64,000 nt of DNA. It comes from Waddliaceae bacterium. Lineage in GTDB: Bacteria > Chlamydiota > Chlamydiia > Chlamydiales > SLFE01. Of this stretch, positions 1-33,190 are shown in pieces. A program made the position numbers and the translations under genes. Under the pieces are notes generated by a model. It searched no databases. It had not been told where the DNA came from and saw only the letters and a list, made by a program, of their open reading frames with translations. Position 1 is the first letter of the stretch. Every line of letters begins with the position of its first letter. The DNA is taken from positions 1 to 64,000 of the forward strand of contig CAWAPJ010000008.1 of the NCBI GenBank assembly GCA_963783885.1. Direction: 5' to 3'.

Positions 1-74
1 CCGAATCAGGGGGTCTTCCCCTATCTTCCATACAGCTCCCTCACGAGCTAAAGCTTATGAGGTTCGTGTCACAC
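1..74 (-). mobile_element. Group II intron 5' end, copy A (runs off the left edge; completeness unknown)
   Basis: Minus strand begins GTGTGACACGAAC at 74 (GUGYG consensus); identical to the 5' ends of the copies at 2343, 2982 and 5383. Confidence 0.8.
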
Positions 75-104
75 CACGGTACGACCCCTTTTCGGCCCCT
101 TTTG

Positions 105-431
105 TTAAACATATGGCCAAATGATTTTGACTCTTTTGTGTGAAGCATTTTTCCAAAATTTCTGAACATCTTGTAATAAGTGAACATATGCATCTAAATT
201 GCATGGGTTTAAATGAGGTAATTCATCATGAATAATTGCAATAGAATTACTCTCTAGCCAATTCAAGTCGCATAAACAGTCATATAAAGCATCCCAGTTA
301 TATCCAAAATATGATGGAAATTTTAAATTTTTAGAATAAAATTTCATTAATTGATTTTTTTCGTTAATTTCAACAGGTACGTTGATAATTAAATCATAAT
401 TTTCATACTTATTATATTCTTTATTTTTCAT
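105..431 (-). CDS. Barstar-family immunity protein
   Basis: FPSYFGYNWDALYDCLCDL barstar motif; directly downstream of a barnase-like toxin domain. Confidence 0.9.
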   Translation of the reverse strand: MKNKEYNKYENYDLIINVPVEINEKNQLMKFYSKNLKFPSYFGYNWDALYDCLCDLNWLESNSIAIIHDELPHLNPCNLDAYVHLLQDVQKFWKNASHKRVKIIWPYV

Positions 432-436
432 ATCTC

Positions 437-1741
437 TTATCTCACTTTAATAAATGATTGGTAATGATCGGGGGTATAATAAATTTCATCACATTCACCA
501 TAAATAATTCGTTGAGGACCAGGTCCTTTAATACCTGGTGTTGGATGCACGAATTCACGATAATAACTTTCAGTTTTTATCGGTAATAAATTTTCTCTAT
601 TACGGAAAATCGCTCCATCATTTCTATGAGAAAATTTGATACCTTTATCAATTCTTTTAATCGTAGAATTCAGATCATTCCATCCATATAATGCCTGATC
701 TTTTCCAACTTTAATTTCACTCCATACCATGGGAATTTCTTCCGCTGCAACACTTATACTGCTAATTTTACTTGCTTGAATTATAGACGATGCTCCCGAC
801 GTACCTACAACACTTAACAAATCATTTGTGATGGATGCACTTTGCGGTGACATTCCTGCTGTTTGCAGAAGATGTTCAGTTATTGTTGCTGTTTCTCTTC
901 CTGTGATCGCAGTGTTCATGCCGGCAACAAATTGATCAAGGCCATGAGCAAACACGGGCCATCCAACAGGAGCTGCAAGTCCTCCTGAACAGAAAATTGC
1001 CGAACCTCCGGCACTTGCCTCGGCAGCACCTATAAAGGCTTGCAGAGATCCCTGTACCCGAGGATTAGACAAAACATCTATAGAATTGTTGATTAAGGAC
1101 TTAAAATTAAAATCGCGAGCACAGGTAAAGGGATAAACTGCTGCATTTTTCATCCCCTGGAATTGCGCTCGAGGATCATACATGCCTATTTCCTCCGGCG
1201 TTGGGTCCCAATACCCGTCAAAGAGACCATACTCATCGAAATGAGTGAGCGGATTATTGTGAACATAAGCGTAGAGATTGAACCCGTCGGAGTAGCCTGT
1301 CGGATCGCAAGTGGTCCAGCGCCCAAGTGAGGAATCGTAATAGCGGCGCCCGAAATAAATCCACCCTGTTTCGGGATCAAGCCGCTTGCTGGAAAACTGA
1401 TAGGGAGGGGAGAGCCCTTGCGATTTTTCTACTTGTCCAAAGGCGCTGTATCTGGCGGCGTGAACGAAATTGCCTGTTTGAGCGTCGACTAGAGCAATGA
1501 CACTTCCCGATTGATCGTGAGTGGGGGCATAAACGACTCCCTCGATCTCCAGAGCGAAGGCCGCTCCGATTTCTGCGCCGAGACCGGCCCAAAGGGCGCG
1601 GAAAGAAGTAAACGCATCGCCTTCAAGACTGCCTACTTCGCAGCTATCCTGATAAAGGAATTTGGTTGTCGATTCAAGGTTCCAATCATCGAAGGTCTTG
1701 CAATATTTCTGCTTGGCGATTCGCCTGTTGGTCGGTAACAT
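437..1741 (-). CDS. Orphan Rhs core + C-terminal microbial guanyl-specific RNase (barnase/RNase Sa-like) toxin
   Basis: Rhs core YFGRRYYDSSLGRWTTCDP...NLYAYVHNNPLTHFDEYGL; C-terminus FRNRENLLP...YYREF...RIIYG...YYTPDHYQSF. N-terminally truncated; expression uncertain. Confidence 0.85.
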   Translation of the reverse strand: MLPTNRRIAKQKYCKTFDDWNLESTTKFLYQDSCEVGSLEGDAFTSFRALWAGLGAEIGAAFALEIEGVVYAPTHDQSGSVIALVDAQTGNFVHAARYSAFGQVEKSQGLSPPYQFSSKRLDPETGWIYFGRRYYDSSLGRWTTCDPTGYSDGFNLYAYVHNNPLTHFDEYGLFDGYWDPTPEEIGMYDPRAQFQGMKNAAVYPFTCARDFNFKSLINNSIDVLSNPRVQGSLQAFIGAAEASAGGSAIFCSGGLAAPVGWPVFAHGLDQFVAGMNTAITGRETATITEHLLQTAGMSPQSASITNDLLSVVGTSGASSIIQASKISSISVAAEEIPMVWSEIKVGKDQALYGWNDLNSTIKRIDKGIKFSHRNDGAIFRNRENLLPIKTESYYREFVHPTPGIKGPGPQRIIYGECDEIYYTPDHYQSFIKVR

Positions 1742-2346
1742 CTCGCGAAATCAGGTTTCCTGTTTCGCCATAAGTGATGTTGCTTTGCGACCACTCGGCA
1801 AAATTTTATTCAAGAGTGATTCACAATGCAGGGACCGGCCCCCTTTACGACCCCTTCGCTCCATCTCCATTACAGAAACTTCATCACTACTACGAGTCGT
1901 TCCGCCCCCGTGCCGCACATCGATACTCTCGCTCTTATGGGTCTTCCACTTTGAGCTTCTCTCTTATCATTACGACGACGAGTTCACACGTTCCATATGA
2001 AAGCCTATGTTAAGTTCATGCCACCTCTATGCCGGCCGCCGCTCAAGCAGTACTCAGGTTTCCCTTGAGCTTTAGTCCTGGATGCTGCCGTGATGCTTCC
2101 AGTTTTGACGACTTCTAAGGGCCTTACGACATTTTCATACAGTGGTTCACTTTCGTTCATCTCCTTAACATGCACCTGAAATGGTCATTTCCACTCCTTT
2201 TCCTTAACGCTCACCACGTGCGGCAATTTGCCTTCGCAGCTTAAGGTGGTTTGATTCTGCTCCTAAAAGCCGAATCAGGGGGTCTTCCCCTATCTTCCAT
2301 ACAGCTCCCTCACGAGCTAAAGCTTATGAGGTTCGTGTCACACCAC
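775..2346. repeat. ~1.57 kb direct repeat (copy 1): intron fragment + linker + Rhs core + pre-toxin region
   Basis: Near-identical to 3815-5386 (offset 3040). Confidence 0.95.
1847..2343 (-). mobile_element. Group II intron 5' fragment (DI-DIII), copy B; no RT ORF, no DV/DVI seen
   Basis: GTGTGACACGAAC start; EBS2-like GGCCCTT (2117-2123); EBS1 CACGGC (2087-2092) in a CTGGA..TCCAG hairpin; typical DIII GGCGGAACGACTCGTAGTAGTGATGAAG...GTAATGGAGATGGAGCGAAGGGGTCGT. Confidence 0.8.
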
Positions 2347-2394
2347 AGCACAGCCCTATCACGGACCTGTTTTCAGGTCTTTAACTCGGTCCTT

Positions 2395-2559
2395 TTACTT
2401 TTCCTTCTCGACCAAATCTTTAAATACTTGAATCAATTCCAGCATATTGAAAGGGCCACAATAACCTTTAAAAAGGTTATCTTTGATACAACAATAAATC
2501 CAATCCGTGTCAGTTCTATCTATAAATTTTTCAAAAAATTCATGATTATCTAAAATTGT
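2395..2559 (-). pseudogene. C-terminal half of a second Imm53-family immunity gene
   Basis: Manual translation TILDNHEFFEKFIDRTDTDWIYCCIKDNLFKGYCGPFNMLELIQVFKDLVEKEK* aligns with the C-terminal half of 3154-3456; no start, fused directly to intron copy C. Confidence 0.8.
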
Positions 2560-2982
2560 CGATACTCTCGCTCTTGTGGGTCTTCCACTTTGAGCTTCTC
2601 TCTTATCATTGCGACGACGAGTTCACACGTTCCATATGAAAGCCTATGTTAAGTTCATGCCACCTCTATGCCGGCCGCCGCTCAAGCAGTACTCAGGTTT
2701 CCCTTGAGCTTTAGTCCTGGATGCTGCCGTGATGCTTCCAGTTTTGACGACTTCTAAGGGCCTTACGACATTTTCATACAGTGGTTCACTTTCGTTCATC
2801 TCCTTAACATGCACCTGAAATGGTCATTTCCACTCCTTTTCCTTAACGCTCACCACGTGCGGCAATTTGCCTTCGCAGCTTAAGGTGGTTTGATTCTGCT
2901 CCTAAAAGCCGAATCAGGGGGTCTTCCCCTATCTTCCATACAGCTCCCTCACGAGCTAAAGCTTATGAGGTTCGTGTCACAC
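2559..2982 (-). mobile_element. Group II intron 5' fragment, copy C (truncated before DIII)
   Basis: Matches copy B with about two substitutions; homology stops at 2559. Confidence 0.8.
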
Positions 2983-3052
2983 CACGGCACGGCCCCTTCT
3001 CTAGGCCCCTTCTCTGTGGCTCATGGGGTATCCTCCTTTTGTGCAAAAAAAG

Positions 3053-3081
3053 AGTTTACCCCTGTTTTTTTCTCCTATCAA
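3053..3081 (-). promoter_or_regulatory. Candidate sigma70/sigma66 promoter pointing into intron copy C
   Basis: TTGATA-17 nt-TAAACT, followed by AAGGAGG and an ATG at 3024. Confidence 0.35.
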
Positions 3082-3153
3082 GTCTCAATTTTAATCTTGG
3101 CATGTTGCTCAGAACTTTCCCTAGAGAATTAGGCAACACACCCCTTCCTCACT

Positions 3154-3456
3154 TCACATTTCTACCCAATCCTTAAAAACTTTTATCATGTCCATTAAGT
3201 TATAAGGTCCACCATCTCCAAGAAATTGTGTGTTTTCAATTCTACAGCAATACCAGTCAAATTCGGAATTTTCGATTATTTTTTTTGGAAAGTGTTTATT
3301 TTCCAAATTAGTTCCATCGAGTTTTATGGTAATTGCCCAGCCAGGATTATCAATTGTAGTTATAAGAATATTTTGATCATGTTCCCAATCTCCATCACAG
3401 TTACTGTAATACCATTCTTGCAACCACAAAATGGCATCATAATTATCTTTCGTCAT
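3154..3456 (-). CDS. Immunity protein 53 (Imm53) family
   Basis: WLQEWYYSNCDGDWEH...ITTIDNPGW motif; ATGA overlap with toxin stop, GGAGG SD in the toxin's last codons. Confidence 0.85.
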   Translation of the reverse strand: MTKDNYDAILWLQEWYYSNCDGDWEHDQNILITTIDNPGWAITIKLDGTNLENKHFPKKIIENSEFDWYCCRIENTQFLGDGGPYNLMDMIKVFKDWVEM

Positions 3457-4781
3457 GGTACCTCCCAATAATATGGTTCTCTAACACCCCCAGGACATAA
3501 AGGATCATGTATATGAGGAGTTTCTACTCTGATTTCAGTAATTTTATTGTAATGATGATGCGGGTGCATAGGACCATCATATCGTACTCCCAATTCCCAA
3601 GGATTTGGATTTCTTGGATTAGATTGGGGCCAATATGTTTGATATTTTTCTGTCTTACCAGTTATTGGATTTTTTCTGAAAACACTATGCCCCCCATCTG
3701 CAAATTCATCAGGACTAAATCTTTTCCTTAATACTTTATTTTGTTTACCGAAATTTGTAAATGATGAAAATTCGTTAGGAAGTTGAAAACGAGAACAAGC
3801 CTGAAATCTACTCCCTTGAATTATAGACGATGCTCCCACCGTACCTACAACACTTAACAAATCATTTGTGATGGATGCACTTTGCGGTGACATTCCTGCT
3901 GTTTGCAGAAGATGTTCAGTTATTGTTGCTGTTTCTCTTCCTGTGATCGCAGTGTTCATGCCGGCAACAAATTGATCAAGGCCATGAGCAAACACGGGCC
4001 ATCCAACAGGAGCTGCAAGTCCTCCTGAACAGAAAATTGCCGAACCTCCGGCACTTGCCTCGGCAGCACCTATAAAGGCTTGCAGAGATCCCTGTACCCG
4101 AGGATTAGACAAAACATCTATAGAATTGTTGATTAAGGACCTAAAATTAAAATCGCGAGCACAGGTAAAGGGATAAACTGCTGCATTTTTCATCCCCTGG
4201 AATTGCGCTCGGGGGTCGTACATGCCTATTTCCTCGGGCGTTGGATCCCAATACCCGTCAAAGAGACCATACTCATCGAAATGAGTGAGCGGATTATTGT
4301 GAACATAAGCGTAGAGATTAAACCCGTCGGAGTAGCCTGTCGGATCGCAAGTGGTCCAGCGCCCAAGTGAGGAATCGTAATAGCGGCGTCCGAAATAAAT
4401 CCATCCTGTTTCGGGATCAAGCCGCTTGCTGGAAAACTGGTAGGGAGGGGAGAGTCCATGCGATTTTTCTACTTGTCCGAAGGCGCTGTATCTGGTGGCG
4501 TGAACGAAATCGCCTGTTTGCGCGTTAACTAGAGCAATGACACTTCCCGATTGATCGTGAGTGGGGGCATAAACGACTCCCTCGATCTCCAGAGCGAAGG
4601 CCGCTCCGATTTCTGCGCCGAGACCGGCCCAAAGGGCGCGGAAAGAAGTAAACGCATCGCCTTCAAGACTGCCTACTTCGCAGCTATCCTGATAAAGGAA
4701 TTTGGTTGTCGATTCAAGGTTCCAATCATCGAAGGTCTTGCAATATTTCTGCTTGGCGATTCGCCTGTTGGTCGGTAACAT
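3453..4781 (-). CDS. Orphan Rhs core + Ntox24-like C-terminal toxin
   Basis: Rhs core motif; CT with GHSVF...YQTY...NPRNP...RYD...H.N...TPHIH..PGGVR; the Imm53 neighbour fits Ntox24. Confidence 0.8.
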   Translation of the reverse strand: MLPTNRRIAKQKYCKTFDDWNLESTTKFLYQDSCEVGSLEGDAFTSFRALWAGLGAEIGAAFALEIEGVVYAPTHDQSGSVIALVNAQTGDFVHATRYSAFGQVEKSHGLSPPYQFSSKRLDPETGWIYFGRRYYDSSLGRWTTCDPTGYSDGFNLYAYVHNNPLTHFDEYGLFDGYWDPTPEEIGMYDPRAQFQGMKNAAVYPFTCARDFNFRSLINNSIDVLSNPRVQGSLQAFIGAAEASAGGSAIFCSGGLAAPVGWPVFAHGLDQFVAGMNTAITGRETATITEHLLQTAGMSPQSASITNDLLSVVGTVGASSIIQGSRFQACSRFQLPNEFSSFTNFGKQNKVLRKRFSPDEFADGGHSVFRKNPITGKTEKYQTYWPQSNPRNPNPWELGVRYDGPMHPHHHYNKITEIRVETPHIHDPLCPGGVREPYYWEVP

Positions 4782-5386
4782 CTCGCGAAATCAGGTTTCC
4801 TGTTTCGCCATAAGTGATGTTGCTTTGCGACCACTCGGCAAAATTTTATTCAAGAGTGATTCACAATGCAGGGACCGGCCCCCTTTACGACCCCTTCGCT
4901 CCATCTCCATTACAGAAACTTCATCACTACTACGAGTCGTTCCGCCCCCGTGCCGCACATCGATACTCTCGCTCTTATGGGTCTTCCACTTTGAGCTTCT
5001 CTCTTATCATTACGACGACGAGTTCACACGTTCCATATGAAAGCCTATGTTAAGTTCATGCCACCTCTATGCCGGCCGCCGCTCAAGCAGTACTCAGGTT
5101 TCCCTTGAGCTTTAGTCCTGGATGCTGCCGTGATGCTTCCAGTTTTGACGACTTCTAAGGGCCTTACGACATTTTCATACAGTGGTTCACTTTCGTTCAT
5201 CTCCTTAACATGCACCTGAAATGGTCATTTCCACTCCTTTTCCTTAACGCTCACCACGTGCGGCAATTTGCCTTCGCAGCTTAAGGTGGTTTGATTCTGC
5301 TCCTAAAAGCCGAATCAGGGGGTCTTCCCCTATCTTCCATACAGCTCCCTCACGAGCTAAAGCTTATGAGGTTCGTGTCACACCAC
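3815..5386. repeat. ~1.57 kb direct repeat (copy 2)
   Basis: Near-identical to 775-2346. Confidence 0.95.
4887..5383 (-). mobile_element. Group II intron 5' fragment (DI-DIII), copy D
   Basis: Appears identical to copy B; EBS1 5127-5132, EBS2 5157-5163. Confidence 0.8.
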
Positions 5387-5388
5387 GG

Positions 5389-5446
5389 CACGGCCCTATC
5401 ACGGCCCTATCACGGCCCTATCACGGCCCTATCACCACGGCCCCTT
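5389..5446. repeat. 11-bp tandem repeat CACGGCCCTAT x4 plus one variant unit
   Basis: Units at 5389, 5400, 5411, 5422 and variant CACGGCCCCTT at 5436. Confidence 0.95.
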
Positions 5447-5487
5447 CCCGCTAGTAAACTTGGGCCAACTTCCCGCGGCCCGCCTGT

Positions 5488-5748
5488 TCATTGGTCAGTT
5501 TTTGGTATTTCATCAGGTTCAGGATTTCTTACTTCTTTAATAAATTTCATTGATGAAGCACCGAATTTAATAAAATTTTCTCTTGCTTCATTTAAACTTT
5601 CTTTGTTGGCTCCACCTCTATAATTCGGATCATTATATTGAACATAATCATCTTCCCAATTACATACTGGGCAAATTTCATAGGTTCCTGGGGGTGATTC
5701 GGATAGAGTTAAGAAACCGCAACATGGGCATTTATACATTCTAGACAT
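5488..5748 (-). CDS. CPCC-family cysteine-rich protein, probable immunity protein
   Basis: CPCCGFLTL...YEICPVCNWEDD...GGANKESLNEARENF; follows the Rhs CT. Confidence 0.85.
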   Translation of the reverse strand: MSRMYKCPCCGFLTLSESPPGTYEICPVCNWEDDYVQYNDPNYRGGANKESLNEARENFIKFGASSMKFIKEVRNPEPDEIPKTDQ

Positions 5749-5753
5749 AACTC

Positions 5754-8700
5754 TTATTGTACCTCCCAATATAAATAACCATCTTCTGGGCGAAACATCG
5801 TTTTTGGAATGCCTTCCTTAGTGTATGCTCCAAAAGTATTTGTGGATGGATTATATCTTAACATCTCACCATTTACCCTCGTTTTATTGAACACATTTGG
5901 ATCAAAATATAGTTCCCTTGCTTTTTCTAAATATTCCTTAGAATTTCTCAATTCCGGAAATTCAACACAATGGTCTTTCCAATGCTTGTAAGCATTTTCT
6001 ACCGAAGAACGACTTTTAGTAGTAGACCAAATTGGTTTTGTATCTACCGATGATCCAAAAAATCTCTTTTGAACAGAAGCTATTTTAGCACTGATAGTAT
6101 TTTGAGGTGTAGCTCTTTGAACAGCTTTTGCCGCCTTTCTTGTTTTCCATAAAGCGTCAAATGTTCTCATGGCAACTTGAGCAGTCTTTCTCACATAAGG
6201 TATTTTTAAAGCCTTTTTTCCTAAGAATTTGACTCCTCTTCCACAAGCTCCCCACACTTTTTCTCCGGTAAGCTCAAGGGCTGTACCACCGGCAAGTAAA
6301 CCGATTTCCGTAAAGCTTCTTTGAGATATAGGAATCACTCTATTTGGATCATTAGGATCACCCCAGAATTCACTATGCAAGCTGCTTCCAAGCTCATAGG
6401 TACAACCAAAAAAGAAATCTCCCGCTTGTAATGCACCATATTTCATCCCTTGCAGCTGAGCTTCAGCATTGAACATTGCGCTTTCTTCCGGCGTTGGATC
6501 CCAATACCCGTCAAAGAGACCATACTCATCAAAATGAGTGAGCGGATTATTGTGAACATAAGCGTAGAGGTTAAACCCGTCTGAGTAACCTGTCGGATCG
6601 CAAGTGGTCCAGCGCCCAAGTGAGGAATCGTAATAGCGGCGTCCGAAATAAATCCACCCCGTTTCGGGATCAAGCCGTTTGCTGGAAAACTGGTAGGGAG
6701 GGGAGAGTCCATGCGATTTTTCAACTTGTCCGAAGGCGCTGTATCTGGCGGCGTGAACGAGATCGCCTGTTTGCGCATTAACTAAAGCAATGACACTTCC
6801 CGATTGGTCGTGAGTGGGGGCATAAACGACTCCCTCGATCTCCAGAGCGAAAGCCGCTCCGATTTCTGCACTGAGGCCGGCCCCAAGGGCGCGGAAAGAA
6901 GTAAACGTATCGCCTTCAAGACTGCCTACTTCGCAACTACCCTGATAAAGGAATTTTGTTGTCGATTCAAGACTCCAACCTGAGGTTGTCTTGCAATATT
7001 TCTGCTTGGCGATTCGCCTGTTTTGCGAATCGTAGATGTAGCGGTACTTTTCTTCATTCTTAATGACTGTGATAAGGCGGTCAAGAGCGTCGTATAAATA
7101 GGAGCTGTCGCTATCCAAAATGAGATTACCTGCAAGATCATAAGCGTAGGTTTTGCCGTTTGCGGTTAACACCTGATTTAAGTCATTGATGGCAATCTCA
7201 CCGCCGTCATAGGCAATGCGGTTATTGATGGAATCATGGGTGTAGGCATGGGATGCCATACCCTCTTCAGAAACAAGCTGGTCAAGCTTGTCATAAGAAT
7301 AATCACAGTGATTAAGACCCCATTGGTCGGTAACATCCCGCGAAATCAGGTTTCCTGTTTCATCATAAATAAGGTTGCTTTGCAACCAATATTTTGAATC
7401 CTGGGAAGTTTCGCGCCCCATCAAATCATAGCTGATGCCGATTCGGCCCGCAAGACCAATTTGGTGAATACTTTTGAGTTTCCCTGATATGCCGTATCGG
7501 TAGTTTGCGTAATACTCGTCTTGAGATGTTTTGTAGACAGCCTGCAGAAGATGGTCGCCTTGATACAGATATCCAACCTCTTTTTGGTAAGGAAAAGATA
7601 TTTTACCGGTCCTTCCCAGACAATCCTTCTCATAAAAAATTTCAAGATCATTGCCCAGTTTTTCAAAAATCATTTCTGAATGGTCGTTATACCTCCTTTG
7701 AGTCTCAAAGTTATTGATCCGGTCGAGGACAGAGATGAGATTTTTGAGCATGTCGTAAGTATATTCATAGCAAATGGCACTTTCTTCGGGAGCGTTGAGC
7801 GATTCAAGCTTTTCAACAAGCCCCAATGCATTGTAGGTATATTTCAGCACAATTCCGTTTGGCTTGAGAATTTTTTCTTTCTCTCCAAAATCATTGTATT
7901 CGTAACGCGTAATTCTCTGATCATTGGATCCGGCGGCTTCTATCAGGCAAGTCAGCTGATTTGCGCTGTTGTATTCCATAAGATTGATGATTGTACGGTC
8001 ATCTTTTCCCGGAGTAATGACAGTTTGCTCCTCTTGGATAAGATTTCCGACAAAATCAAATCTCTTATCGACTTTCGATAGCATCTGGCCAAATGGATCC
8101 TTTTTCTCAACACGAACGACGCGATCGAAAACATCATAGGTTTCAACCGTCTGAACTCCCTTGGGATCCACAGTCGTTTTTTGTAAAATGCGCTGCCCAA
8201 ATTCATTGCGAAATTCAAAATTGTAATCGATATACGTCGCATACCCTAAGGGATCGATAATTTTAGTCGGTTGATTCAGGACGTTATATTCCGTTTTCGT
8301 GATCGAGAGTCCCTCATCGGTATGGACAATCTCCGATATTTTATTCCCCGTTTCATCATATTCTGTTTGAACCCTGCCCCAAATGCGCCCTGATGAATCT
8401 TCTCGATACTCGTCTATCATCTGATTGCAAAAGTCATAAATTTTAACAGAAGCAATCCAATTCCCATCATGCCATTGCTTAACAACTGATTCTCTTCCCA
8501 GTGAATCATATTCATAGGTTGTGAGTCGGCCTTCCCTCTCAGCGGCAATTTTTCTGCCCGCCCCGTCATAGGAATAATTTGTCTTGACGCCTGCAGCATC
8601 GGTTTCAGAAACAAGCAAAGACCCTTTGTAGGTTTTGGCCTCTTTAGATAGCACCTCTCCATCAGAAGAGATGACAGTTTTGCCAATCAACCGTTTAAGG

Positions 8701-8858
8701 CAATCCCATTCAAAATGAGTTTCTGTTCCTTTTTTATCTTTATGCGTTTTGAGCGTGCCATTTAAATTGTAAATCCATTGTTCAGAAGTTCCATCGGGAT
8801 ATGTGATTGAAGTAGGTTTTCCGAGAATATTGTAGGTTTTTTTTGTTTCCCTTCCCAA
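5754..8858 (-). CDS. Rhs/YD-repeat protein, C-terminal part with core and putative RNase toxin tip
   Basis: Many YD repeats, Rhs core, CT HWKDH..EF...LRYNPSTNTFGAYTKEGIPKTMFRP; same frame as 8910-10030 across a TAA. Confidence 0.9.
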   Translation of the reverse strand: MGRETKKTYNILGKPTSITYPDGTSEQWIYNLNGTLKTHKDKKGTETHFEWDCLKRLIGKTVISSDGEVLSKEAKTYKGSLLVSETDAAGVKTNYSYDGAGRKIAAEREGRLTTYEYDSLGRESVVKQWHDGNWIASVKIYDFCNQMIDEYREDSSGRIWGRVQTEYDETGNKISEIVHTDEGLSITKTEYNVLNQPTKIIDPLGYATYIDYNFEFRNEFGQRILQKTTVDPKGVQTVETYDVFDRVVRVEKKDPFGQMLSKVDKRFDFVGNLIQEEQTVITPGKDDRTIINLMEYNSANQLTCLIEAAGSNDQRITRYEYNDFGEKEKILKPNGIVLKYTYNALGLVEKLESLNAPEESAICYEYTYDMLKNLISVLDRINNFETQRRYNDHSEMIFEKLGNDLEIFYEKDCLGRTGKISFPYQKEVGYLYQGDHLLQAVYKTSQDEYYANYRYGISGKLKSIHQIGLAGRIGISYDLMGRETSQDSKYWLQSNLIYDETGNLISRDVTDQWGLNHCDYSYDKLDQLVSEEGMASHAYTHDSINNRIAYDGGEIAINDLNQVLTANGKTYAYDLAGNLILDSDSSYLYDALDRLITVIKNEEKYRYIYDSQNRRIAKQKYCKTTSGWSLESTTKFLYQGSCEVGSLEGDTFTSFRALGAGLSAEIGAAFALEIEGVVYAPTHDQSGSVIALVNAQTGDLVHAARYSAFGQVEKSHGLSPPYQFSSKRLDPETGWIYFGRRYYDSSLGRWTTCDPTGYSDGFNLYAYVHNNPLTHFDEYGLFDGYWDPTPEESAMFNAEAQLQGMKYGALQAGDFFFGCTYELGSSLHSEFWGDPNDPNRVIPISQRSFTEIGLLAGGTALELTGEKVWGACGRGVKFLGKKALKIPYVRKTAQVAMRTFDALWKTRKAAKAVQRATPQNTISAKIASVQKRFFGSSVDTKPIWSTTKSRSSVENAYKHWKDHCVEFPELRNSKEYLEKARELYFDPNVFNKTRVNGEMLRYNPSTNTFGAYTKEGIPKTMFRPEDGYLYWEVQ

Positions 8859-8909: not shown

Positions 8910-10030
8910 TTACGAGATAGGTTGAAGGCCATTTTCTCCAAGGGTATGGGGAAGAACTGTTGCAATGTTCCGGCCATAGCTGTCATATTTAGTAACCGTA
9001 CCTTCGCCAAATATATTTCTGGACAAAGTTCGATAACCCATTTGATTGTACTTATACGTTTCGACAAAAGAATTGTCCTGTCCATCACGAATTTCTTTTC
9101 TTATTGGCTGATCAAGAAAATTGTATTTATATAAGATAATTTGCCCCGGCTTGGGCCCTTCTTCGCAAATCATGTTCCCATAAATGTCATAGTTTCTCGT
9201 GATAACACGCCCTAAAGCATCCACTTCCCTGGTCATCTTGCCGAATCGATTGTACTCCCACTCCAGTGTATAGCAATAGTTGTCGTCTGCATCGTAAACC
9301 TCTTGCTTTGCCTGCCACCCCTCCCTAGTGTATTCATTCACTAATCGCTTTATCTGCTTTTCCTCTTCAAGGTCGAGATAAACTTCTCTTATCTCTACAG
9401 GAAACCCGATGCAAGGGGCATCTTTTTTCGGAGTGTAATACTTAATGATTCTATGGGTCATTCCTGTAAAATCATCTTCCATTTCAGAGCAGCCGTCATC
9501 GGCAATTTCTTTGATCAAAGTCGAGTTGTTGTCATATTCCATAAATTTTCTGTGAAGAATATTTCCGCTGTCTGTCACAAATTCCTGTGAACAAAGATCG
9601 GTATTGTTTTTATAGGCAAAAATAGTCGTCGTGTCGCCATCAGCGGAGGTAAGCATATTGTTGAATTTGTCATTTGAATAGGTGTATTCTTTAAAACAGG
9701 TTTCTAAAGAATCTCCGCAGCCGCTGAATCGCCCTGTTAAATCCTCTCGGATAACATTTCCGCGATCGTCATAAGTGTATTGATGCTTAAAAAGAGAACC
9801 TGACCAATCCCGCAGTTCTTTCCAGACAAGCCTCTCTTGACTCCATGCAAACACCTCTTGTTTCAACATACTCTTTTCGCAAACACCATGGATAATGTTT
9901 GTAATTTTTAAATTATCACCGTATACAAAGTTGCGCCGATAGCCCAAAGCGTCTGTAACAATTGTATTTCCCCTATAGAGTTGTCTGTTTTTTTCATCAT
10001 TGATTTTATATTCAAAATGATACTGATCGC
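8910..10030 (-). pseudogene. Rhs gene upstream fragment, cut by IS66 and ended by an in-frame TAA
   Basis: YD repeats; frame is open up to the IS66 end at 10031; TAA at 8910-8912 is in frame with the downstream Rhs ORF. Confidence 0.8.
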
Positions 10031-10037
10031 GTAAGCG

Positions 10038-11591
10038 TCATTTAAGCCCATCTGGAAAAATTATTCCAGATTCTTTAGAGATCGAGAGCCCCTTTGCCTT
10101 AGCCCAGCGATCGGGGAGAAGTTCGTACAGCTTGTTTGCGGGGTGATCCATTAAACTGCGCATGACATCTTCAAGATATTCGTGGGGATTAATGCCAAGT
10201 TCACGGCATGTTTGAATAAGGGAATATATGATTCCTGCTGCTTCCCCTCCATTAGCGCTTCCAAAAAAGAGCCAGTTTTTACGACCGATTGCCAAGGGAC
10301 GTATTGCTCGTTCGGCAACATTGTTATCAAGATGGGCAAAGGGTTTTTTGATATAGTTTTTAAGATGAGGAATAAGGTCGCAAAAATACTTCAACGCTGC
10401 CATTAGTTTTGATTTTGGGAGAATTTTATGGTCTTGAAGCTTTTTTTTCGCCTGTTTGATCATTTCGCTGATGATCGGCTCCTCATCTTCCCGCCGTATT
10501 TTTAATCGTTCTTCGGGGGATTTTTCCCAAGCGATTTTTTCATACTTGTAAAGCTCCTGAATTTGGGCTAAAAACCAATCTTTAAACTCTTTATCGCCGC
10601 TTTGGATATCGAAAAATTTACGACGAATGTGCGCCATGCAGGGGCACCAGGTATACTGCTTCATATTCGCAAGCGTTTCATAAGCTCCGTATTTATCGGA
10701 ATGAAGAGTCCCCTTGAAGCCTTTTAAAAGTTCTTTCGCGTTGCAATGCTTGCGGTTTTCGAAAAATTGATAAATCCGATAAGGCGGATCTTTTGTTTTT
10801 CCTCCAGCGAGCGCCCATACATAAGACTCTTTAGTTTTTCCTCTTCCGGGATCCAGCATCTTGACAGGAGTTTCATCCGCAAAAGCATTTTCACTTTCAA
10901 GAATTTTTGTTTTCATTAATGTATACAAGGGTTTTAAGGCGAGACCCGCTTTTACAACCCATGTGCAAAGGTTTTGCCGGCTTATCCTAACATCTTCCCT
11001 TGCGCGCATTTCACTTTGACGGTATAGAGGCAAGTGGTCGGCGTATTTCTTAACCATAATGTCTGCAAGCAGGCTTTCATCCGCAAAACAACGATCTAAT
11101 AATGAACCCGGAAGCGGCGCTATTGAAACTCCATGCTCAGGACGATCCGGAGAAACGTACTTGGGACGAACATACTTTTTAAGGTAATAGCTGGTGGGCT
11201 TGCAAGCAAGCTTATAGGTTACCTCTTCCCCCATTTTTACGAGAGGTTTTCCTGTTTCAGGGCATACTTTCTCCTCTTCGGGAATGTCGACAGGAATAAC
11301 TTCCGTTGGGATATCTTCGGGTAGAGTGATTTTGTCTTTTCCGTTTCTTTTCAGCTTTCGTCTTGTATGGGAAGAAACCGTTTTTTTCTCTTCTTTTTCT
11401 TCTCCTTGAAGATTACCGAAGCCATCGAATTCCAGTTGATTTTCATTCTGGGGGATGATCTTTTCAGAGCGTTTGTCAAATATCTGGCGCTTGAACCATT
11501 CCAGTTGTTCTTTGAAGTAATTGATCTCATTTTTGAGTTCTGAATTTTCTTTCTGAAGTTGTTCTATAGAAGGGTTTTGTATCGCTTTCAT
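10038..11591 (-). CDS. tnpC: IS66 transposase TnpC
   Basis: KYADHLPLYRQ, ADETP, CMAHIRRKF, DNNVAERAIRPLAIGRKNWLF motifs. Confidence 0.95.
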   Translation of the reverse strand: MKAIQNPSIEQLQKENSELKNEINYFKEQLEWFKRQIFDKRSEKIIPQNENQLEFDGFGNLQGEEKEEKKTVSSHTRRKLKRNGKDKITLPEDIPTEVIPVDIPEEEKVCPETGKPLVKMGEEVTYKLACKPTSYYLKKYVRPKYVSPDRPEHGVSIAPLPGSLLDRCFADESLLADIMVKKYADHLPLYRQSEMRAREDVRISRQNLCTWVVKAGLALKPLYTLMKTKILESENAFADETPVKMLDPGRGKTKESYVWALAGGKTKDPPYRIYQFFENRKHCNAKELLKGFKGTLHSDKYGAYETLANMKQYTWCPCMAHIRRKFFDIQSGDKEFKDWFLAQIQELYKYEKIAWEKSPEERLKIRREDEEPIISEMIKQAKKKLQDHKILPKSKLMAALKYFCDLIPHLKNYIKKPFAHLDNNVAERAIRPLAIGRKNWLFFGSANGGEAAGIIYSLIQTCRELGINPHEYLEDVMRSLMDHPANKLYELLPDRWAKAKGLSISKESGIIFPDGLK

Positions 11592-11635
11592 AGCCCATAT
11601 TTTACCAAAAAACACTCTCTAAAAAAAGGAAATAT

Positions 11636-11971
11636 TTAAGTTTTTTCGAGAAAAAATCGGGTGCTGATCCGTTTGGGAATAATGCCTTCAAGCATCATGA
11701 AAAAATCCCTCCTGTTCATGGCAATTTTTCCGGAAGCTTTAAGAGGAAAGCGCCCTTTTTCAAGGCGCTTATACCAGATCGCAAGACCGTCATTATCCCA
11801 GTAGAGCACTTTCATTTTATTGCGCTGGCGATTGAGAAAAACAAAGAAAGCACCTGATGTCGGCTCTTCCAAGGATTGCTCTATGATAGCGCATAAACCC
11901 TCGAAACTCTTTCTCATGTTAACCGGCTCGCCGAAGACAAAAATACGAGCATTTCCTGTAATTGTCAGCAT
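11636..11971 (-). CDS. tnpB: IS66 accessory protein TnpB
   Basis: NMRKSFEGL...KVLYWDNDG...KRLEKGRF. Confidence 0.92.
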   Translation of the reverse strand: MLTITGNARIFVFGEPVNMRKSFEGLCAIIEQSLEEPTSGAFFVFLNRQRNKMKVLYWDNDGLAIWYKRLEKGRFPLKASGKIAMNRRDFFMMLEGIIPKRISTRFFLEKT

Positions 11972-14461: not shown

Positions 14462-16017
<1,556 letters not shown>

Positions 16018-16297
16018 TAAGGACAAGTACGCATTTAGCTGTAGTACTAGGTTGAGACAAGCTGTTGATGTACATTATCTTTCTTTACTGCTGTCAAGCA
16101 GTTGTATGTTATCTTGGACAGTAAAGTCAGATAAGTTAAGATTCAAGTTGACAAGCATTATATTCACTGATAAGATATGTAAGTGAAGTAATCGTCTAAT
16201 AACGACGATATATCACTGATAGTAAATCGACGCTTGAGAATAACTATAATCATTATATAGGCAGCTAAAGCATGCTTACAATTTAGTAACAACTTTG

Positions 16298-19252
<2,955 letters not shown>

Positions 19253-19385
19253 CTTTTTTTTAAGCTAGTGGAAAAAACCGACTACGAGTTGTGTAGAAGA
19301 GACTTTAAGCGCTATTTTTTAATAAGAGGCTAGAGAACTACTCAAGCGTCGATTTTTGTTAGTGACATAAGATATAATCGATTTA

Positions 19386-19501
19386 TCTTGGTGGCAATAG
19401 AGAAGGGGAAATACCTGATCCCATCCCGAACTCAGAAGTCAAGCCCTTCATCGCCGATGGTACTGCACACAAGAGTGTGGAAGAGTAGGTCGCTGCCAGG
19501 T
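19386..19501 (+). rRNA. rrf: 5S rRNA
   Basis: CTTGGTGGC...CCCATCCCGAAC...GATGGTACTGC...GAGTAGGTCGCTGCCAGG. Confidence 0.95.
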
Positions 19502-33039: not shown

Positions 33040-33190
33040 AGAAAATCAGACCGCTTTTTGGCTCTTTCACCGACTTTGGCCATTCGTCACAAATCCCCTA
33101 CTCTAAAGAGTATGTGAGTTTGCGTCGAATGGCCAATCTCGGCAAAATAGCTCAAAAATCAGTTTTGCCTTAGTTTTGCAATTCCCTCTA
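33040..33190. repeat. Palindromic interspersed element
   Basis: TTCACCGA...TGGCCATTCG...CGAATGGCCA.TCTCGGCAAA core; right end shared with 53406-53474. Confidence 0.65.

Follow-up and report, generated by a model that had tools for sequence, protein, structure and literature searches.

How did the 5′ part of a group II intron come to stand repeatedly behind the immunity genes of a bacterial toxin array, and is it still a working ribozyme? The question is raised by contig C8 of a Waddliaceae bacterium (genome G000; 2.16 Mb, 46 contigs, 88.9% complete). Its first 64 kb, hereafter called the window, carry at their left end an array of Rhs cassettes on the minus strand. Judged by its gene content, this locus is a Rhs/YD-repeat polymorphic-toxin array with orphan modules: a core with its tip, immunity genes and core 3′ fragments were all found. 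An initial annotation of the window had proposed that several live 5′ splice sites could share one copy of domains V and VI (DV/DVI), in cis or in trans, and release cassette-carrying lariats. The evidence points to another answer: the element is most probably what remains of a group II intron's 5′ part, catalytically dead and now belonging to the constant spacer between orphan Rhs cassettes. Positions 1-8500 of the window were compared with the Rhs locus of G001, a sister species of the same genus with five contigs (G001:C3:1-20000).

The element starts with the 13-mer GTGTGACACGAAC, which has exactly four occurrences, all on the minus strand, at positions 5383, 2982, 2343 and 74 (copies D, C, B and A, respectively), as the initial annotation had reported. 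None of 100 shuffled sequences reached four matches (mean 0.45). The copies begin about 104 (D), 171 (C), 51 (B) and 30 nt (A) after the stop codon of an immunity gene, in the orientation of the cassettes. Rfam model RF01999 (group-II-D1D4-2, gathering score 36) is matched with 92.4 bits by each of D (5214-5331), C (2813-2930) and B (2174-2291). Copies D and B are identical, C is 99.5% identical over 424 nt and A 100% over 74 nt, the latter being that short because position 1 of the window is also position 1 of the contig. The copies begin with GUGUG. Their assignment to the 5′ part of a group II intron stands.

In a survey of 400 sampled Chlamydiales genomes, related introns were found in 24. 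Nucleotides 1-498 of the element align with complete introns of other Chlamydiales and, outside G000 and G001, no listed match passes query nt 498. Among the matches listed, the closest relatives are G151:C13 (82%) and G061:C175 (78%), both complete mini-introns of ~655 nt that carry no open reading frame (ORF) and in which the DV/DVI model RF00029 scores 54-55 bits ~100 nt past nt 498. As for the ORF-bearing relatives (G018:C67 and G256:C1), their reverse transcriptase (RT) gene starts shortly after the equivalent of nt 498. Because the homology ends at this point, and because DV/DVI or an RT gene follows in the relatives, nt 1-498 correspond to domains I to III (DI-DIII), up to the start of domain IV (DIV). 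The two mini-introns lie at about 1335-1992 (G061:C175, minus strand) and about 180-840 (G151:C13, minus strand) and leave no room for an RT gene; ORFs with a maturase domain occur elsewhere in G151 (two), and none was found in G061, which is 78% complete. Group II introns that lack an ORF are described as rare in bacteria (PMC4424553). The ORF start "MEMERRG" at nt ~472 was considered as the beginning of an intron-encoded protein and rejected, given that the ORF-bearing relatives have conserved RNA there and that their intron-encoded protein starts further downstream, in another frame.

The full extent of the element became apparent from its longer copies, located by blastn against each genome and numbered as nt 1-530 of one unit. 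Besides the copies of the window, G000 holds a fifth long copy on contig C19 (711-1240) and a 46-nt stub on C43, and G001 holds three long copies (C3 5695, 8262 and 11721) and a 38-nt stub, all on a single 64.8-kb contig. Each of the six long copies (D, B, C19 and the three of G001) spans exactly nt 1-530. In five of the six, nt 530 is followed by the same ~21-nt linker and by entry into the Rhs core at main-gene position 7388, the junction of the 8262 copy being assigned through its tail; the C19 copy has the same end at nt 530, with different downstream DNA. Instead of the repeated, independent 5′ halves that had been assumed, the copies thus look like one fixed deletion derivative with a single core-fragment junction. 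Copy C stops at nt 424 and continues with an Imm53-type gene from its middle onwards; it therefore records a later deletion. In DNA contigs from metagenomes (four runs, three studies), the junction of nt 530, linker and core, the C19-type junction and an undeleted G001-type core were all recovered, the C19-type junction being seen as loose ends at 4854 in X1 and X6. Other introns that share the conserved DIII stretch are the probable source of further loose ends at 4890-4892 and of a depth peak at 4896-4939. An exact 22-mer search for the parent intron retrieved only the G001 contig in the genome collection and nothing in the metagenome contigs. One X1 contig departs at intron nt ~502 and is a candidate unoccupied target-linker-core arrangement; 30 letters of it were read and it was not used.

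The element has two guide sequences. A CUGGA/UCCAG hairpin presents exon-binding site 1 (EBS1, CACGGCA, nt 252-258) in its loop, and EBS2 (GGCCCU) occupies nt 221-226; together they pair with the 5′ flank (A/G)GGGCC-G-TGCCGTG, which provides the intron-binding sites IBS2 and IBS1. Ten occupied 5′ flanks were compared with EBS1: five pair perfectly, three with one G.U pair and two with one mismatch. In the relative G061, EBS1 and flank both differ and still pair, i.e. they covary. This pairing identifies the 5′ flank as a genuine homing site.

The last 32 nt of the unit (nt 499-530) are a second copy of the same target site, which we call T. Its pattern is (A/G)GGGCCG-N7-CATTGTGCATAA..., sometimes forming a full hairpin. 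In G000, GGGCCG-N7-CATTGTG was observed six times against 0.24 expected, always followed by CATAA, and the six sites are three tails and three unoccupied sites (C22, C29 and C44). On C22, the site falls precisely where an immunity-position ORF gives way to an orphan rhs core fragment, in another array; on C44, it lies among immunity-like genes behind a third rhs gene; and on C29, it forms a GC-rich hairpin followed by a T-run and comes after an ORF without annotation. At the end of the G001 array, an unoccupied T takes the form of a long hairpin. Among 21 relatives, the motif was found only in G000 and G001, plus one doubtful match in G004, and the reversed-pattern controls gave none. Since T matches the EBS2/EBS1 guide sequences, we conclude from these matches that T is a native, low-copy, palindromic cassette-end element and the homing site of the intron. 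A small palindrome thus marks the cassette ends of several Rhs loci in one Waddliaceae genus and served as homing site. A looser scan for tandem GGGGYCG was abandoned, as it was overwhelmed by collagen-like repeats, and the specific T pattern was used instead.

The half of the target that lies upstream of the intron is tandemly repeated in places: the 11-nt GATAGGGCCGT occurs four times before copy D (5397-5441, minus strand) and the 18-nt AAAAAGGGCCGTGCTGTG twice before the G001 copy 11721 (11680-11720). Slippage or repeated recombination at the site could possibly have produced these repeats. At the third Rhs locus, a ~55-nt repeat, GAATTCTCCCACACTATTTCACGGGAAGTGACGATTGCGACAAGGGAATAGCTT, stands on either side of an immunity-like gene (G000:C44, 1-55 and 745-800) and may be another kind of inter-cassette repeat.

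A live intron might instead have inserted separately behind each immunity gene, with truncation of the copies later on. In favour of this, the 5′ flanks differ upstream of about -16, each matches EBS1/EBS2, and a further Rhs family has the C43 stub behind its immunity gene. We nevertheless hold such independent retro-homing to be highly improbable. Five copies would have had to acquire an identical truncation at nt 498, an identical tail and an identical linker, and B, C19 and G001-11721 have flanks that are paralogous by descent. Moreover, target-primed reverse transcription, the copying mechanism of group II introns, starts at the 3′ end, so that copies truncated at their 3′ end are not expected from it.

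Concerning the catalytic and protein parts, RF00029 found no DV/DVI in the window nor in the whole 88.9%-complete G000 assembly (128 candidates scored), and the protein profiles of intron-encoded proteins, PF00078 (RVT_1) and PF08388 (GIIM), had no match in the same assembly; positive controls were matched with all three models. Other group II models had no match at E ≤ 1 in positions 1-7000 of the window. An arrangement in which each cassette sits inside DIV, with DV/DVI after the immunity gene, was rejected: the spacers measure 30-171 nt and contain no match to the DV model. All four 5′ splice sites lie past stop codons, therefore splicing would change no protein. On these searches, the 530-nt RNA is predicted to be unable to splice alone, and nothing indicates splicing in trans. 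The idea of live splice sites sharing DV/DVI and excising cassette lariats, and with it the tempting claim of ribozyme-driven cassette mobility, is not supported. For the most part, the observations which the initial annotation had itself named as speaking against its proposal were made: DV/DVI, RVT_1 and GIIM were not found in the 88.9%-complete assembly. Moreover, the equivalent inter-cassette site on C22, in another Rhs array of G000, is free of the element.

G001 does possess one lone, well-formed DV/DVI (C4:101240-101316, minus strand; RF00029, 62 bits), with no 5′ intron part nearby. It adjoins the truncated 3′ end of an IS256-type transposase gene on the chromosome and has no homologue in G000. 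It lies ~130 nt upstream of a 451-aa Fic-like gene, a family read from the sequence alone. A second DV-like piece of 69 nt was discarded because it misses RF00029 at E ≤ 0.01. No GIIM match was found in G001, whose single RVT_1 ORF (354 aa) is of another kind and has no maturase domain.

The lone DV/DVI is relevant to the possibility of a split intron, in which the 530-nt units would be live 5′ halves and a separate RNA with the 3′ part of DIV, DV and DVI would complete the ribozyme. The break at the DIII/DIV boundary is where natural split introns break (PMC4424553), the unit retains an intact 5′ splice site, EBS1 and EBS2, eight of the ten flanks keep their IBS1 pairing and the element is highly conserved. 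We nonetheless give this reading very little credence, and just as little to completion in trans by an unassembled or diverged DV/DVI, as the G001 copy might hint. Apart from the missing DV/DVI, RT and maturase of G000, the G001 piece lies against a transposase gene that is broken, and its upstream region pairs with the 3′ end of the unit no better than shuffled sequences do (-45.5 vs. -41.9 ± 5.0 kcal/mol). The last 32 nt of the unit are target-site DNA and not DIV, and the splice sites behind stop codons leave no protein to be changed. Finally, nine uncompensated changes were counted in the G001 8262 copy; one of them affects intron nt 9, three others fall within the first 40 nt, and the IBS1 of this copy is mismatched. 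If a split intron were real, the cassettes would have alternative 5′ splice sites behind them, and bacteria would have their first natural group II intron that splices in trans. According to a 2015 review, none was on record for bacteria (PMC4424553). A live intron would be notable, if RNA supported it, because bacterial trans-splicing had not been reported by then and ORF-less introns are rare.

A role that needs no ribozyme was also considered: the insertion could split the T hairpin and allow read-through into the orphan immunity genes, or act as a structured leader or promoter. The unoccupied T on C29 is terminator-like, being a GC-rich hairpin with a T-run, the G001 array ends in a long hairpin, and the descending arm of the hairpin is gone in occupied sites. 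Outward promoters have been reported in the IIC-attC introns associated with integrons (PMC3001079), and the strong conservation of the element would agree with such a function. Against it, a scan for consensus promoters returned 12 sites where 10.9 were expected, and no copy contained one on the coding strand; the minimum-free-energy fold of the 530-nt unit does not stand out clearly from those of shuffled sequences (z = -1.85); and substitutions break predicted pairs, as in the C19 copy, where G127A is uncompensated: non-canonical pairs appear, and RF01999 scores 86.4 instead of 92.4. Exaptation of this sort therefore seems unlikely, though less so than splicing or repeated homing.

The distribution of variation among the copies argues for recombination. 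While housekeeping DNA of G000 and G001 is 85% identical over 8.9 kb, the identity reaches 92-94% in the Rhs core, 97-98% in the best cassette pairs and 98-99% in the 530-nt units; because of this difference, the locus or its cassettes would have been exchanged recently. Cassette content and order differ between the two species, CT2-Imm53 being located on the main rhs gene in G001 and on an orphan module in G000. Polymorphic sites form a mosaic across the copies and across both species, and sites 79 and 206 show all four combinations. The G001 locus lies on the 64.8-kb contig, apart from the main contig C4 (>2.2 Mb), and this smaller contig may be a plasmid or another mobile element. The mosaic sites, the deletion in copy C and the reshuffled cassettes are all in accordance with the fallback suggestion of the initial annotation, namely that the introns serve as recombination repeats. 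T itself is palindromic in G001 (14191/14287), on C22 and on C29. It is only a candidate for a recombination site, and T plus the intron fragment could possibly form an attC-like cassette boundary that drives Rhs exchange between species.

The following history would account for the dead fragment in the spacer. Cassettes of this genus end in T, the homing site. One intron, probably an ORF-less mini-intron of ~655 nt like the closest relatives, or else an ORF-bearing one, would have retro-homed into a T behind an immunity gene. A deletion at a TCGT(A) microhomology would then have joined nt ~498 to the next T downstream, removing DIV-DVI and leaving the 530-nt unit (intron nt 1-498 and a T tail); the last nucleotides of the retained intron part, ...GGGGTCGTA (nt 490-498), are similar to the TCGTTAAAGGGG found before T on C22. 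The module made of the 5′ target half (T5), the 530-nt unit, the 21-nt linker and the Rhs core 3′ fragment recurs together with the cassettes, and its amplification would have proceeded by unequal or homologous recombination. The unit, like the core fragment, would act as a long homology tract by which cassettes are duplicated, deleted, reshuffled, homogenised and exchanged between species. A retroelement fossil would thus have been absorbed into the constant region of a polymorphic toxin, where it adds ~550 nt of near-identical homology between cassettes.

Several points weigh against this history. With the assembly 88.9% complete and copy A running off the contig, DV/DVI or a full intron could lie among unassembled repeats, and G001 does have its intact-looking DV/DVI (62 bits) beside the broken IS256 transposase gene. 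The element is 98-100% conserved in eight copies of two species, which selection could explain instead of exchange; the best-matching neighbouring cassettes, however, are also 97-98% identical. The end at nt 530 stands beside two downstream sequences, the core linker and the C19 flank, and the model holds only if C19 is the terminal, ancestral copy of the array. The microhomology deletion is deduced from four or five shared bases, and use of the 5′ splice site is judged from the sequence only.

The locus shares features with several known systems. Like other truncated group II fragments of bacteria, the element has a GUGUG start, an RF01999 match (DI-DIII) and EBS/IBS pairing with its flank, lies in non-coding DNA behind genes and near insertion sequence (IS) elements, and has no DV/DVI or intron-encoded protein. 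Unlike them, it is one fixed, multi-copy derivative to which the target site is fused a second time; it lies inside the repeat unit of a toxin array and is 98-99% identical between species that are 85% identical elsewhere. As in the orphan Rhs arrays described as arising by core recombination or C-terminal displacement (PMC3150448), a main rhs gene precedes orphan modules that consist of a core 3′ fragment, an AT-rich divergent tip and an immunity gene and whose order varies between relatives; here, however, the constant region adds the ~550-nt intron fragment and the target motif, and a shared palindrome stands at the cassette ends. Intron C.te.I1 of Clostridium tetani likewise has repeated parts of one group II intron in a locus of variable proteins, and no intron-encoded protein in its genome (PMC4424553). 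C.te.I1 is nevertheless a complete self-splicing ribozyme with repeated 3′ parts, whose alternative splicing changes the protein (PMC4424553), whereas in our locus the 5′ part is repeated, no DV/DVI was found and the splice sites follow stop codons.

Integron introns (IIC-attC, PMC3001079; IIB in halophile integrons, PMC7923331) also have as homing site an imperfect palindrome at the 3′ ends of cassettes. The Waddliaceae element differs in being probably dead, in its probable amplification by recombination instead of homing and in its target recognition through EBS1 and EBS2 (IIB-like). As regards integrases, only IS66, IS110-like and IS256-like transposase genes were noticed nearby, with no dedicated integrase search made. 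The organellar trans-splicing introns split in DIV share the DIII/DIV break and the intact 5′ splice site and DI; by contrast, no 3′ half was found in G000 and there is no coding need for exon ligation. No paper on group II intron fragments inside Rhs arrays was found in a literature search that left out subscription journals and supplements.

The features of the array are collected in the table below. Pfam matches and translations agree with the gene order first proposed (Rhs-CT/CPCC, Imm53, Imm53 remnant, barstar). Each tip is followed by a predicted cognate immunity gene (CPCC, Imm53 or Barstar), the RNase tip preceding Barstar. The GC content falls from ~0.50 to 0.25-0.37 in the toxin tips. 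The orphan core fragments are 85-92% identical to positions 7388-6437 of the main rhs gene, and that of cassette 2 has a ~300-nt internal deletion relative to it.

Table. Features of the Rhs array and its intron copies at the left end of the window.
Feature	Position	Strand	Evidence or remark
IS66-family transposase	10038-11615	-	DDE_Tnp_IS66, E 2e-87; directly upstream of the rhs frame
Main rhs frame, upstream part	8910-9947	-	Weak RHS_repeat match; in-frame stop at 8910-8912
Main rhs ORF: YD-repeat core, then toxin tip CT1	5754-8858	-	RHS_repeat PF05593, E 6.4e-31
CPCC-family small protein, immunity position for CT1	5488-5748	-	Cys_rich_CPCC PF14206, E 2.9e-32
5′ exon / target half T5 of copy D	5384-5444	-	11-nt GATAGGGCCGT x4; ends with IBS2 AGGGCC, G, IBS1 TGCCGTG
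Intron copy D, nt 1-498, DI-DIII to DIV start	4886-5383	-	EBS2 5158-5163, EBS1 5126-5132
Copy D tail, nt 499-530	4854-4885	-	AAGGGGGCCGGTCCCTG/CATTGTGAATCACTC; second, unoccupied-type copy of the target motif
Fixed ~21-nt linker, tail to Rhs core fragment	4833-4853	-	Same in five copies, two genomes
Orphan cassette 2: Rhs core 3′ fragment and tip CT2	3453-4832	-	ORF from ATG at 4781
Imm53 immunity gene	3154-3456	-	PF15580, E 8.2e-33
Intron copy C, nt 1-424 only	2559-2982	-	Deletion-joined to the middle of an Imm53-type gene
Imm53-type C-terminal remnant	2395-2558	-	Translation; paralogue of an intact gene on contig C19
Intron copy B, nt 1-498 and tail 499-530	1814-2343	-	Identical to D
Linker, Rhs core fragment and orphan tip CT3	437-1813	-	Barnase-type RNase at C-terminus, PF00545, E 2.4e-11 (ORF 437-1741)
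Barstar-family immunity gene	105-431	-	PF01337, E 8.4e-20
Intron copy A, first 74 nt	1-74	-	Ends at contig end

The core of the main rhs gene ends with ...DPTGYSDGFNLYAYVHNNPLTHFDEYGL, which we take to be the conserved Rhs core-end motif, and the variable tip follows. At the in-frame stop, the translation reads ...GLQPIS, stop, SISISIPIGNVTQVTDPLGRETKK, and the same frame goes on into the ORF at 5754-8858. The N-terminus of rhs appears to be missing, with the IS66 transposase in its place, and the main toxin gene looks inactivated in G000 by the stop and the upstream IS66, an assembly error being possible at the stop.

Some minor observations were made around the copies and elsewhere in the genome. 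Directly after the intron copy on C19 (1243-1929, minus strand), there are two small ORFs of opposite orientation without Pfam matches; the reading frame of the first runs into the intron fragment, and beyond them lies an IS110-like transposase gene, a family read from its translation alone. Further along the window, an rRNA operon occupies positions 14462-19501, in keeping with a chlamydial genome. At about 33048-33190, a ~145-nt sequence was noticed that has many copies in G001 and G002 (73-94% identity, on many contigs) and looks like a miniature inverted-repeat transposable element.

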